The notes beneath the pieces were generated by a model. That model did no database searches. It was not told where the DNA came from and saw only the letters and a program-made list of their open reading frames with translations. Below, piece by piece: positions 3,964 through 24,515 of a stretch of 64,000 nucleotides of DNA; position 1 is the first letter of the stretch; each line of letters starts with the position of its first letter. Location: positions 128,001 to 192,000 of the IMG/VR virus record IMGVR_UViG_3300011560_000001, one strand, 5' to 3'. The DNA comes from a virus (lineage: Duplodnaviria; Caudoviricetes). The position numbers were made by a program, and so were the translations under genes.

Positions 3964-4272
3964 ATGGGCGATTCACTTGATCATGACACACTTGAGCAAT
4001 TACGTATTTTAATCAAACTTGTCGGGCAGCTGGAAACCGACGACAACTTAACAGATAACGCGCATTTTATTTTAAGCGATAAGAACATCCTTGTCGAACG
4101 TATTCAAAATAAATGCCAACGTCTTCTGTTGTATGTGGAAGATCCAGATTGTTTAAGCGCCAGAACAAAACATCTATTCGATGCGGGTATTCGTGTTTGC
4201 GCTCAATCGGAGGATCTTTTCTGTTGGCAAAGAGGCGTATTGTTTACAACTAAGGGTCGCATTGAATTTTAA
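3964..4272 (+). CDS. Hypothetical protein
   Basis: GAGG RBS before ATG 3964; 102 aa. Confidence 0.6.
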   Translation: MGDSLDHDTLEQLRILIKLVGQLETDDNLTDNAHFILSDKNILVERIQNKCQRLLLYVEDPDCLSARTKHLFDAGIRVCAQSEDLFCWQRGVLFTTKGRIEF

Positions 4273-20326: not shown

Positions 20327-22222
20327 ATGGGCTTAGACGTACGTAATAACGGTAACGATAATGTAGAAATTCGTGCAGCTGAAACCCGCACCGCACAACG
20401 TGCTGATGAGGCGCTGGAAACCGCTGCAGATTTTGCCGACCGTCCTAAAGTAACTCATACGATGCGTACGATCAACCGTACACTGAGCCGTCGTATCAGC
20501 CGTAATACCGGCTCCGAGCAGGTACTGAATCTCCGTCGTCTGATGGAGAAATATCTGGAAGATACCCAGTTCAAAGACGACTTCATCTTTGTTGCGGTTG
20601 ACCCGAACCAGTACAGCGTACCGTATCCGACCCTGGTTGTTATGAGCGGTGCAAAAGTAGGTGATCATAACCACTTCTTCGGTTACGTCCTGCCGCTGGT
20701 TGCTGGTCTGGCTCCGCTGCCGCGTCGTGAAGAACAAGGTCCGCATGGTAACATTCTGGTACCGCGTACCTGGGTTGATAACCTGAACGGTACGTTCATC
20801 AACGAAGTCATGGCGGCAATGTATTCAGCTATTGGTGGTAAGTCTAACGGTACTGTTCGTATCGCTGGTCTGGCTGTGGTGACCAATGAAATCACCGCTG
20901 AATCCGCGCATCTGGCAACCACCCTGCTGTCTGCTGCAGATAACGCAATCCAAACCGCGATCGAAATCCGTCTCGGTGATAAACTGGGTCTGCCGCAGTT
21001 CAACCTGGGCATGATGGCAAGCGATCAGCCAATCAGCAGCGTTCAGTACAACACCAGCGGTATGCAGGACAGCGATATTGTTGGTAACCCTGTGCGTTCT
21101 GACATCACTGTAACTATCTCTAACCGCATCCGTCAAGCGATGAGCGATTACGATAGTCAACAGCGTCTGGTCGCCACCACCGGTTACATTGACCTGACCT
21201 ACAGCCCGCAGAACCCGACCTTCAACCAAGGCCCTGTTCTGGTTAACGGCTATCCGGTACCGCCGACTGTACAATACCAGCCGCGTTACGTGATGACCAG
21301 CGCTTACCCGCTGGAGCTGGATGCGTTCACACCGAACAGCTTCGTGCTGGGTCTGATTGGTACCATCGCTACACTGAACAGCGGTATGGCGTGGGCACAG
21401 TCTTTAATCAGCAACGCTGCTCGTGGCATCGGTCCTCATAACCCGGGTGCTCTGGCGATGGTACTGGATCCGGAAGTTACCGCACCGCTGGATCTGTCTA
21501 CTCAAACCAACGAGCAGATTTACAAGTTCCTGCAACAGGTACTGTATCCGTCTCTGCTGATTTCTATCGATGTACCGGAAGAAGGTGAATATAGCTGGTT
21601 GCTGCGTATGATCCCTGCAGCTGAGAAGATCTTTACGGGCAACGTTGACGGTAAAGTTCAAGAAATCTCCGAAGGCTATAAAGCACTCTATCGTGCATTC
21701 GATGATACTACCCTGGGTTGCTTCAGCAAGAAATATCAATACGGCCAACCGTTAGTGTACGCTACCGGTAACCGTATCCCGCTGGGTCACTACAACCACC
21801 AGGATGGCCACCGTCACGATATTCGTGATATGGACGATCTGTACATGATGAACATCACTAACCCGGATACCGTAGAAGCTTGGGAAGACAGCTTCGACCG
21901 TACCGATATGTCGATGTCTCAGCGTGTTGTCGCTCGTCACGAAATCATCGATCGTGTTCTGTCTGGTAGCTGGGAACAAACCGGCTGGGCAATGCGTTAC
22001 GATTTCGAACCGAATGCGCTTGCGGCATTGATTGAAGCGGCTGCCGAAGCTGGCTTCACCATCCGTCCTGAGAACATCCAGCATCTGGCAGGTACCGCTG
22101 TTCGTGGTAACGCAGCAGCACGTGCTCGTGGTCTGGGTAACATCTCCGGCAACATCTATGCACGTAGCGATCGTCCGAATGTTGGCGGTAACAACATGGG
22201 TGGGGCATTCAACCTGTTCTAA
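20327..22222 (+). CDS. chmA: Chimallin, phage nuclear shell protein
   Basis: 631 aa. The N-terminus MGLDVRNNGNDNVEIRAAETRTAQRADEALE matches Goslar ChmA as recalled. Codon bias is strongly high-expression, and the gene lies directly upstream of nvRNAP beta'. Confidence 0.93.
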   Translation: MGLDVRNNGNDNVEIRAAETRTAQRADEALETAADFADRPKVTHTMRTINRTLSRRISRNTGSEQVLNLRRLMEKYLEDTQFKDDFIFVAVDPNQYSVPYPTLVVMSGAKVGDHNHFFGYVLPLVAGLAPLPRREEQGPHGNILVPRTWVDNLNGTFINEVMAAMYSAIGGKSNGTVRIAGLAVVTNEITAESAHLATTLLSAADNAIQTAIEIRLGDKLGLPQFNLGMMASDQPISSVQYNTSGMQDSDIVGNPVRSDITVTISNRIRQAMSDYDSQQRLVATTGYIDLTYSPQNPTFNQGPVLVNGYPVPPTVQYQPRYVMTSAYPLELDAFTPNSFVLGLIGTIATLNSGMAWAQSLISNAARGIGPHNPGALAMVLDPEVTAPLDLSTQTNEQIYKFLQQVLYPSLLISIDVPEEGEYSWLLRMIPAAEKIFTGNVDGKVQEISEGYKALYRAFDDTTLGCFSKKYQYGQPLVYATGNRIPLGHYNHQDGHRHDIRDMDDLYMMNITNPDTVEAWEDSFDRTDMSMSQRVVARHEIIDRVLSGSWEQTGWAMRYDFEPNALAALIEAAAEAGFTIRPENIQHLAGTAVRGNAAARARGLGNISGNIYARSDRPNVGGNNMGGAFNLF

Positions 22223-22314: not shown

Positions 22315-24515
22315 ATGGCCATCATGCTCGATATCGTGAGTTTCGATAGACAGCTCGCAGAACTTCCCTTTACGCCGATTTTGTTGAACGATTACGATAC
22401 AAAAGTCGTCGAAGAGAAGAAGAAATTAAACAGTTTTATCACCCGTGTTTACTCCAGCGATACGTTGGATATCACGCCACAATGTGGGTGCGGTTTCTAC
22501 AATCGTGGTGAGCTGCTCGGCACGGTGTGTCCAAACTGTAAAACGGTTGTGACCTACCCAGCAGAACAGGAGATTCGTTCGACGGTCTGGGCGCGTGTTC
22601 CTGAAGGAATCGATGCGTTCATTAACCCGTTGGTCCATCTCGTGCTGGCAAGCGAGTTGAATATCAAAAGCTTCGAAACGATGACGTGGCTCATTGATGC
22701 CAGTTACCGTCCAAATGTAAAACGACCCATTGAACTCAAGAACTATCTGGAGCAGCAATTTGATGTATTCGGGATACGGCGTGGCGTAAATAGCTTTATA
22801 CAGAACTTCGATCGCATCATGGAGATCTTGTATAAAGGACCTACGTTACGTGGACCGAAGAACACAGAGAAAGTTGACACGCTACGAGAATTCATCCGTA
22901 TCCATCGTGATAAGTTCTTCAGTCAGTACATCAGCTTTCCTGCAGCCATGATGTTCGTTATCGAGAATACGCCAACCGGTCGTTATGCGGATAGCAAAAT
23001 GGAAGGTGCGATCGATGCTATCGGTACGTTGAATAGTATCTATCACCCAACAACACCTTTGAGCGCCAGAAAGAAAGAAAACTGGATGGCGAAAGTGCAA
23101 TTGAAGCTGCTGCAATACCACGCGGCGATTTTCGATGAGTTCATCGGTAAGAAGAAAGGTATTACACGTAAAAACATATTAGGTACATTACATCCATTCA
23201 CCACGCGTACCGTAATCAGTTCGATAACAGCGAACCATCGTTATTATCATCTGCATTTCCCATACGCACCATTTACTTTAACCAATAAAGAACATATCCA
23301 ATCCAAGTTATTCCATCGCGGTTATTCACCGAGAGCAGCACGTGCGTTCGTTGCGGAACATGTCCGTAATTATCATCCGATGATGAGCGAGCTGCACGAT
23401 GAGCTTATTGCTGATACACCGTTCGATGGGATTGTGTGTGGCTTTGTTCGAAACCCATCACTTGACCGAAGCAGTAACCAATGTCTTGAAATCACCAAGG
23501 TTAAACGCGATCCGCAGGATAACACCATCGGGTTAAGCGTGATGATCCTTAAGGGATACAACGCTTCAAATGAGGCCCTGCCTTCCGAAAGGAAGAGCTT
23601 GAATTCCGTGAATTGCTGAGACGGGCTAAAGCCACTCTGCCCTTGTGGGAGCCGATAAGGCGGAAATAAGTGAGTGGATGTTGGGAGGCTTCAACGACAG
23701 TCCTGAACCAGGATGCCACCCCAACGTACAATGTTCAATCAGCAGCCTAGCCGCCGATTATCGGTGGAAGGTTCAACGATCATGTCCCTCGAATTCGCTG
23801 AGGGTAGCGCGGAACACCCTTCGTGGGTGATGAGATGATCTCTCCGTCCTGGTAACACCAGGAGCTGCAGGTAATGCTGCGGGTATGGAGTAGCGAACCA
23901 TACTGAAGATACGTGGACTTTGACGGTGATGCCAGAGCCATGGCCTTATCTCCTGAAAAGGAGAATATGCATTCCGTGAATTGCTGGAATAGGCTAAAGC
24001 CGTTACGCCTCGTAAGAGGAACCGATAAGGTAGAAACAAGGTAACGGATGTACGCGGCTTCAATGAAAATCCCTTTAATGGGACGCCTACCGTACGTAAC
24101 AATGTCCAATCAGCAGCGAAGCTCCGTTTAGGAGAACGTTCAACGAGTAAGCGGTCTCAAGCGAGATCCAGCGCGGAAGTCCTACGTTCCATTTGGAATA
24201 TGGACATGATATACTCTCAACATCCTGGTAACACCAGGAGCTGCAGGTAATGCTGCGGATACGAAGTAGCGATTCGTATTGAAGATATTGATGAACAACC
24301 ATATCGTCCCAGACATTTGGACTGCGAAACATTTCGGGAGATTCCGACCCGAACTCGGTATGATGGATAATAACGTACCTTTTAAGGTATCTAAGAAATG
24401 TGAACATCAGTCACCGGTTATTTCTACCATTGACTGTTGGTTCAACGAATTCGTGGAGGGCGATGACGTAGAACCTTATCTTGACGAAATAGAAGCAACT
24501 AACAACCATTGCTAA
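22315..24515 (+). CDS. nvRNAP beta' N-terminal subunit (phiKZ gp55-56.1-like), spliced: join(22315..23565,23916..23933,24291..24515), 497 aa
   Basis: Zn-binding CGCG...CPNC, KKGITRKNILG and RNPSL. Exon 1 ends ...KGYNA, exon 2 is DFDGDA and exon 3 begins MNNHIVP. Together they rebuild the universal NADFDGDxMxxH active site. Confidence 0.9.
23566..23915 (+). mobile_element. Group I intron 1 (350 nt, no homing endonuclease ORF)
   Basis: The exon ends in U with P1 GCU/GGC giving a U-G wobble. P element GAATTGCTG, Q AATCAGCAG, R GTTCAACGATCA, S GATGATCT; P3 TTCCGTG/CGCGGAA; terminal G. Confidence 0.88.
23934..24290 (+). mobile_element. Group I intron 2 (357 nt, no homing endonuclease ORF)
   Basis: Has the same P/Q/R/S elements (GAATTGCTGGA, AATCAGCAG, GTTCAACGAGTA, GATATACTCT), P3 TTCCGTG/CGCGGAA and a terminal G before ATG AAC. 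The 5' boundary was inferred by alignment to intron 1. Confidence 0.85.

Follow-up and report, generated by a model that had tools for sequence, protein, structure and literature searches.

We examined the gene for the beta'-N part of the nvRNAP (non-virion RNA polymerase) in a Goslar-like jumbo phage known from IMG/VR virus record IMGVR_UViG_3300011560_000001 (237,533 bp, 99% complete). Bases 128001-192000 of this record, 64,000 nucleotides (nt) in all, form the stretch of DNA analyzed here as a whole (the window), and positions are those of the window unless stated otherwise. The gene lies at 22315-24515, across which the DNA is 94% identical to that of E. coli phage Goslar, and it very probably contains, 18 nt apart, a pair of paralogous group I introns that lack open reading frames (ORFs) and that isolate the codons for DFDGDA on a micro-exon. 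This micro-exon holds the three Mg-binding aspartates of NADFDGD, which we take to be the most conserved RNA polymerase motif. The two-intron reading is favored because of natural alleles that lack the introns, a joined product that aligns without gaps, a covarying fold that includes P7, the terminal guanosines of both inserts, and the lack of a second copy of the gene.

Gene structure and natural alleles

The ORF at 22315-23619 reads ...VMILKGYNA as far as 23565 and unrelated sequence thereafter. The predicted gene model is as follows.

22315-23565, plus strand: exon 1, 417 codons, ending ...KGYNA with last base T23565; matches positions 1-417 of the 478 of phrog_2987 (E 5.5e-115)
23566-23915, plus strand: intron 1 (site c), 350 nt, no ORF, group I, IA-like, terminal G23915
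23916-23933, plus strand: micro-exon, 18 nt, GACTTTGACGGTGATGCC, GAC TTT GAC GGT GAT GCC, encoding DFDGDA
23934-24290, plus strand: intron 2 (site e), 357 nt, no ORF, group I, paralogue of intron 1, terminal G24290
24291-24515, plus strand: exon 3, starting ATGAACAACCAT, encoding MNNHIVPD..., 74 codons and a stop; matches positions 426-475 of phrog_2987

A preliminary description, made from the sequence alone, had given the coordinates of the two inserts, the micro-exon and the start of the C-terminal exon, and every one was right when the sequence was read again. It had also predicted an in-frame protein of 497 amino acids (aa) upon removal of 23566-23915 and 23934-24290. Joining 22315-23565, 23916-23933 and 24291-24515 indeed gives 1494 nt and a 497-aa product containing ...KGYNADFDGDAMNNH..., which aligns without gaps, NADFDGDx included, with the intron-less homologues from Eowyn, RAY, 201phi2-1 and Noxifer. 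Exon 3 can be read in its frame only after splicing. The gene was assigned with PHROGs profiles; Pfam matched no family in the exons or in the other RNA polymerase ORFs. Since the matches to phrog_2987 (RNA polymerase beta subunit) cover positions 1-417 and 426-475, the piece missing between them has the size of the micro-exon. The full-length match including the NADFDGD loop, together with a position behind the nuclear shell gene, places the gene among the chimallivirus nvRNAP beta'-N genes (phiKZ gp55 family). The shell (chimallin) gene, phrog_4795, lies directly upstream at 20327-22222, and the same order is found in Goslar, Eowyn, RAY, Noxifer and phiKZ, as well as in 201phi2-1 with one small ORF between the two genes. 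Purifying selection acts on all exons: compared with Goslar, exon 1 has 29 nucleotide differences, all at third codon positions, and no amino acid change (100% protein identity), and exon 3 has 6 nucleotide differences and 1 amino acid difference.

Scans of IMG/VR and of metagenome contigs yielded ten further loci, namely nine new Goslar-like genomes and Goslar's own IMG/VR record, with exon-1 proteins 99-100% identical to that of the window. The stretch coding for GYNADFDGDAM occurs in five allele forms among 12 Goslar-like genomes, listed here with a caret marking each point of insertion.

Allele 1, the window: introns at site c (AACGCT^GAC) and site e (GCC^ATG); one 18-nt micro-exon
Allele 2, L012, L013 and L014: intron at site c only, with GACTTTGACGG(T/C)GACGC(G/A)ATGAAC contiguous; no micro-exon
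Allele 3, Goslar: introns at site d (GACTT^C; 1440 nt, with an HNH-NUMOD gene) and site e; one 13-nt micro-exon
Allele 4, L011, L015, L016, L017 and L019: introns at site a (GGGT^AT), site d (376-380 nt, no ORF) and site e; two 13-nt micro-exons
Allele 5, L018: intron at site a only (1381 nt, 323-aa ORF), everything downstream contiguous; no micro-exon

Goslar, L011 and L018 have no intron 1 and read straight through its flanking codons, and intron 2 is absent from L012-L014 and from L018, in which all of ATAATGCTGATTTCGACGGGGACGCGATGAAC is contiguous. Each window intron is thus missing, with nucleotide precision, from some sister genome. Because the same codons are contiguous at each site in sister genomes, both intron boundaries are fixed, and precise excision restores the reading frame as in the alleles lacking each intron. 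The micro-exon codons are intact in every allele despite synonymous change, and one predicted tryptic peptide, GYNADFDGDAMNNHIVPDIWTAK, spans every junction in all alleles. The 23 introns at the locus all end in G, as do those of the window at the omega positions G23915 and G24290, and all but one (22/23) follow T. No allele free of introns at the NADFDGD motif was found in any of the 12 Goslar-like genomes (0/12). Once the AAT^GCT site of phiKZ is counted, there are five insertion sites within ~30 nt, occupied or empty at fixed positions among close relatives, as is characteristic of mobile introns.

In the genomes with allele 4, three group I introns are packed into 29 nt of coding sequence (L011 5244-6365, and likewise L015, L016, L017 and L019), and their 13-nt micro-exons read ATAATGCAGATTT and CGACGG(T/G)GA(C/T)GCT. 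The site-a intron of L018 (860-2240) contains the 323-aa ORF with weak, sub-threshold matches to HNH_3 and to I-HmuI NUMOD-like domains. Its ribozyme core closely matches that of the ORF-less site-a intron of L011, which suggests that the L011-type intron may have lost its ORF.

The genome has no backup copy of the nvRNAP beta'-N catalytic loop. A degenerate DNA pattern for NADFDGD (AAYGCNGAYTTYGAYGGNGAY) had no match in the 99%-complete genome, and a protein search with exon 1 across the genome returned the beta'-N locus only. A six-frame scan of the genome for D[FYWLIMV]DGD gave five matches: the micro-exon, a phrog_2986 subunit, ADYDGD in a 75-aa ORF, and two instances of DIDGD. The ADYDGD sequence was considered as a second catalytic loop and judged to be a chance match. 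DFDGD proper occurs at two places in the genome, the micro-exon and a contiguous 562-aa phrog_2986 ORF outside the window. The preliminary description had named an intact NADFDGD-containing beta' gene elsewhere in the genome as one finding that would overturn its reading; none was found. The 562-aa ORF (genome positions 106566-108254; L020 2567-4255) has a contiguous GGDFDGDTV loop and no intron, and belongs to a different RNA polymerase subunit family, probably that of the beta' part of the virion enzyme.

Fold and relationship of the two introns

The two window introns were aligned with nine relatives of the same family (six introns from site e and three from site c) for analysis of covariation, giving 11 introns in all. 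RNAalifold recovered P1, P2, P3, P4, P5, P5a-c, P6/P6a, P7.1, P8, P9, P9.1 and P9.2 from this alignment, and the P7 pseudoknot (an A-U pair, then a bulged C and an invariant G-C pair, followed by a further four pairs) was added by hand. In the combined fold, standard pairs occupy 99.6% of 1034 cells and 36 of the 94 pairs show double-sided changes, whereas controls in which the partners were slid by 1-3 columns were 35-44% paired with only 1-4 double-change pairs; none of 500 shuffles reached the observed pairing values. The 11 introns represent three lineages only, so these counts overstate the number of independent events, although the slid controls share the same relatedness. The guanosine-binding part of P7 (A-U, bulged C, then G-C) is invariant in 11/11 introns and has covarying pairs below it, the sequences being GAUCA/UGAUC in intron 1, GAGUA/UACUC in intron 2 and GAAUA/UAUUC in Goslar. 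The positions of these elements in the window are given below.

23776-23782 with 23836-23841, plus strand: P7 pseudoknot of intron 1, A-U, bulged C, GAUCA/UGAUC
23786-23804, 23808-23814 and 23815-23829, plus strand: P7.1, P3' and P8, respectively, inside P7 of intron 1
24143-24149 with 24212-24217, plus strand: P7 pseudoknot of intron 2, A-U, bulged C, GAGUA/UACUC
24153-24168, 24172-24178 and 24179-24205, plus strand: P7.1, P3' and P8, respectively, inside P7 of intron 2

Pairs 227/297 and 228/296 of P7 in intron 1 covary between the paralogues, and in P7.1 all pairs (6/6) differ between the window introns with pairing kept. Covariation therefore backs a group I core from P3 to P9 with the P3/P7 pseudoknot. 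When the introns were folded as single sequences, the minimum free energy z scores were -2.35 for intron 1 and -3.25 for intron 2, and the fold of intron 1 reproduced most of the helices. Subgroup IA is defined by one or more extra hairpins (P7.1/P7.2) between P7 and P3' and by P9.1/P9.2 extensions; the presence of P7.1, P9.1 and P9.2 in both introns points to this subgroup. Together with the alleles, the alignment of the joined product and the terminal guanosines, the covarying fold upholds the proposal of the preliminary description that two tandem group I introns isolate DFDGDA. Neither window intron encodes an endonuclease: no plus-strand ORF longer than 61 aa lies inside either, and the four largest intron ORFs on both strands had no Pfam match at E values up to 1. 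Antisense ORFs of 106-109 aa across the introns likewise had no Pfam match and were treated as spurious.

Introns 1 and 2 are ~61% identical (223/365 aligned positions); the "mean column identity" of 80% in a two-row alignment overstates this value and was set aside as a measure of their likeness. Intron 2 and its Goslar counterpart at site e agree at 298/357 positions, with 90-97% identity in the core, and the P1-P2 end of intron 2 is unlike either comparator. The 3' domains, P9-P9.2, are the most similar parts of the two window introns, and in intron 2 this region (P9-P9.1-P9.2, 24223-24279) is slightly closer to that of intron 1 (23847-23903) than is the rest of the intron, so gene conversion or exchange between the tandem copies may have affected P9-P9.2. 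Introns at sites a and b have their 3' tail, from P9.2 to the end, in common with the window introns. Sites c and e both follow ...ACGCT or ...ATGCT with the same 3-nt exon part of P1 (GCU), which fits a move of one copy to a second site. Intron 2 occupies a site shared with Goslar (A^M), and it seems plausible that an older paralogue, now intron 1, moved to the second ...ACGCU^ site 18 nt upstream, where it would have found the same 3-nt P1 match.

Splicing and the C-G pair of intron 2

If the two-intron reading is correct, each intron would fold on its own into P1-P2, P3-P8, an extended P4-P6 (with P5a-c), P7 with a bulge beside the G-C pair, P7.1 and P9/P9.1/P9.2. Cleavage behind the final base of the upstream exon would then use exogenous guanosine, exon ligation would use the terminal G, and removal of both introns, in either order, would give an mRNA encoding the 497-aa subunit and its metal-binding loop, NADFDGDA. 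The splicing chemistry of both introns and its efficiency are inferred. The nvRNAP is taken, by analogy with phiKZ and Goslar, to transcribe late genes (bioRxiv 10.64898/2026.10.01.755736), and late expression would accordingly depend on two splicing events. Since Goslar is cultured and viable and needs the same kind of double splicing, it lends support to this reading. The predicted P1 helices at the two 5' splice sites are as follows.

23563-23576, plus strand: P1 of intron 1, GCU^UC with GAGGC; canonical wobble T23565.G23574 at the 5' splice site
23931-23944, plus strand: P1 of intron 2, GCC^A with UGGC; splice-site pair C23933-G23942, Watson-Crick

Several results weigh against the two-intron reading. 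The preliminary description had called for a search with the Rfam group I models, and at the gathering threshold no match was found anywhere in the window. The full RF00028 model (1-253) does match both introns in E-value mode, at 23555-23862 (26.4 bits, E 2e-4) for intron 1 and 23918-24238 (28.0 bits, E 6.6e-5) for intron 2, but these scores fall short of the curated cut-off of 50 bits. For comparison, RF00028 scores 46.5-50.2 bits for the site-d introns (46.9 for that of Goslar) and 28-33 bits for the site-a intron. When phiKZ was studied by long-read transcriptomics, the predicted gp56 intron was not seen to be spliced under those conditions (PMC10914365). At its 5' splice site, intron 2 of the window has a C-G pair in place of the canonical U.G, the sole exception among the 23 introns of the locus, and this C allele is known from a single metagenome-derived genome. 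In the Tetrahymena ribozyme, a change from U.G to C-G raises P1 undocking ~80-fold (PMC1891724), and because P1 docking is weakened in this way, the splicing of intron 2 may be slow.

These observations bear on two alternatives. In one, the inserts are not spliced at all, and the gene is broken or split into a truncated 434-aa ORF and a 78-aa ORF further downstream that are expressed separately, with DFDGDA as a relic. The missing Rfam match at the curated threshold agrees with such a view, as does the annotation of Goslar in GenBank/RefSeq as a truncated RNA polymerase subunit plus a separate hypothetical protein. However, the phage would be left with no nvRNAP catalytic loop, as the genome holds no other copy, and an unspliced insert leaves unexplained why the micro-exon codons are kept in every allele, why the inserts retain a covarying ribozyme fold and why their presence or absence is nucleotide-precise across genomes. 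We therefore find this alternative hardly credible.

In the other, the two inserts do represent group I introns, but a C at the 5' splice site, left by a recent mutation or an error in the metagenome consensus, cripples intron 2, and little or no active beta'-N would be made by what is a defective or declining variant. The weakened docking seen in Tetrahymena and the isolation of this intron as the one without T at position -1 are as this alternative would have it. A search of IMG/VR for a second genome with the P1 variant (pattern GAYGCCAGAGCCATGGCC) also failed to find one, the sole match being an unrelated high-GC contig (L023) attributable to chance. However, the substitutions private to intron 2 in P1, P2, P7 and P9.2 are all compensatory, which is not expected of a decaying ribozyme, and its guide CAUGGC (23939-23944) can pair fully with the ligated junction GCC^AUG, with 3 bp in P1 and 3 bp in P10. 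Exon 3, downstream, is still under purifying selection. Moreover, in the Anabaena intron either C or U (YNN) is reported to be workable at the 5' splice site if the guide pairing is kept (PMC12355055). A crippled intron 2 is therefore improbable, and under the two-intron reading intron 2 is taken to be a working ribozyme, possibly a slower one. Three other registers for intron 2 were considered and rejected in favor of the one with a terminal G: a +1 shift leaves the mRNA unchanged with A as the last intron base, a -1 shift produces GCG (Ala) with T as the last intron base, and placing the T of GAT at position -1 loses the Ala codon.

A third alternative accepts both introns as functional and sees the arrangement as a regulatory device, in which skipping of the 18-nt exon gives an in-frame subunit lacking the catalytic aspartates that acts as a dominant negative or controls middle/late timing. 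The skip product AACGCT^ATGAAC does stay in frame, since 18 is a multiple of 3, and the similarity of the two introns is greatest in P9-P9.2. Tandem phage introns skip exons in Twort orf142, and a skipped form is the dominant product for the SIOphi terminase (PMC11878797). However, Goslar and five relatives make the same protein with 13-nt micro-exons, for which skipping one or both (26 nt) shifts the frame, and L012-L014 have a single intron and no micro-exon, so the feature is not conserved and a conserved regulatory role is unlikely. A hybrid core is also disfavored, since P7 strands from one intron do not pair with those of the other (GAUCA vs. UACUC, with two central mismatches). We regard this device as very doubtful, more so than a crippled intron 2. 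The in-frame, catalytically dead subunit that the preliminary description foresaw holds for the window allele, but it is peculiar to that allele and would be a frameshift in Goslar and the five relatives.

Known systems and a possible homing conflict

The closest precedents come from other chimalliviruses, in whose RNA polymerase genes group I introns are already known (PMC10914365, PMC11512511, PMC11620839). In phiKZ, the same gene is split at the same motif (gp55/gp56/gp56.1; NC_004629) by an intron that separates AAT from GCT (N^ADFDGD) at a point 3 nt upstream of the first site in the window, which bears out the precedent cited in the preliminary description. The P9.1-P9.2-3' tail of the phiKZ intron aligns with those of the window introns. 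However, phiKZ has a single intron that carries an HNH-NUMOD gene (gp56), whereas the window has two ORF-less introns located elsewhere and a micro-exon. Goslar (NC_048170) had been put forward as an intron-less comparator, which it is not, as it carries two introns at the motif. Its spliced protein is identical to that of the window save for one residue, it shares the homologous A^M intron, and two splicing events are needed. The upstream intron of Goslar differs from that of the window in that it belongs to another family, lies 5 nt further downstream (GACTT^C), carries an HNH gene and leaves a micro-exon of 13 nt. The joined exons of Goslar are predicted to read ...GCCGACTT^CGACGGTGACGCT^ATGAAC...

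Of the two Goslar introns, the public records annotate just the one that bears an HNH gene and omit the second (L001 4210-4564); the coding sequence of the "hypothetical protein" gp185 (L001 4550-4789) starts inside this second intron, the real exon 3 running from 4565. The true Goslar gene is 1501-2756, 4197-4209 and 4565-4789 of L001. The catalytic subunit of the late RNA polymerase of the Goslar group is thus mis-annotated publicly as a truncated protein and a stray small ORF, and expressing, knocking down or modelling the nvRNAP of Goslar, a main E. coli model for nucleus-forming phages, needs a three-exon (or, for other alleles, four-exon) gene model. A search of the literature found no paper describing the nvRNAP introns of Goslar-group phages; a 2026 preprint mentions only the Goslar DNAP-N intron.

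Among more distant systems, Twort orf142 has three introns and shows exon skipping (Landthaler and Shub 1999, as cited in PMC11878797), and several group I introns interrupt the polymerase, terminase and rNDP reductase genes of Bastillevirinae (PMC11878797). As in the window, several mostly IA-like introns lie in one essential gene, and a small internal exon and its skipping are documented. However, the gene classes are different, and PMC11878797 reports neither a catalytic metal-binding loop carried wholly on a 13-18-nt exon nor five insertion sites within ~30 nt. PhiPA3 gp210 also has a group I intron in a chimallivirus RNA polymerase gene (Birkholz et al. 2024, PMC11620839), and homing endonucleases act there in competition between co-infecting phages (PMC11620839). 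Unlike the window, PhiPA3 has a single intron that bears an endonuclease gene, in the virion RNA polymerase; the window introns are endonuclease-free, and any protection they give would be through passive disruption of the target. Very short exons between self-splicing introns in a conserved coding region are likewise found in fungal and placozoan mitochondrial cox1 (PMC12308204, PMC5436844), although these introns are organellar and often maturase-dependent rather than of phage origin. What appears to be new at the locus described here is a catalytic loop carried on 13-18-nt exons, the five sites within ~30 nt, an allele series among near-identical phages and a natural C-G splice site.

The locus may be a homing hot spot at which HNH-bearing and ORF-less introns have accumulated at five positions within ~30 nt. 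A bolder proposal, which we put forward tentatively and would not yet bet on, is that the catalytic-loop codons are a homing battleground. The HNH introns at sites a, b and d would attack intron-free alleles of co-infecting relatives, ORF-less introns such as the two of the window would persist by breaking the ~30-bp target and hiding it from rival endonucleases, and the stacking of two or three introns around micro-exons of 13-18 nt would have been selected as immunity rather than being neutral clutter. Three HNH-bearing introns target the 30-nt stretch, and related introns in Goslar, L018 and phiKZ carry HNH genes. Any intron here must split the neighboring homing sites, and, in what is a small, non-independent sample, no genome has an intron at site c together with one at a or d. 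The suggestion in the preliminary description that the split removes target sites for rival endonucleases fits the allele distribution. If the proposal is true, the ribozymes must fold and splice in the absence of co-transcriptional translation, because the transcription compartment of chimalliviruses excludes ribosomes.

With five allele types and both endonuclease-bearing and ORF-less versions of the introns, the locus is an unusually dense natural record of the homing cycle and a ready system for studying the protection that introns may give against rival endonucleases, an idea raised by the work on PhiPA3 and phiKZ. It is also of interest for RNA mechanism, as it combines exons of 13-18 nt between ribozymes and a natural C-G 5' splice site with a complementary guide in a virus that separates transcription from translation.

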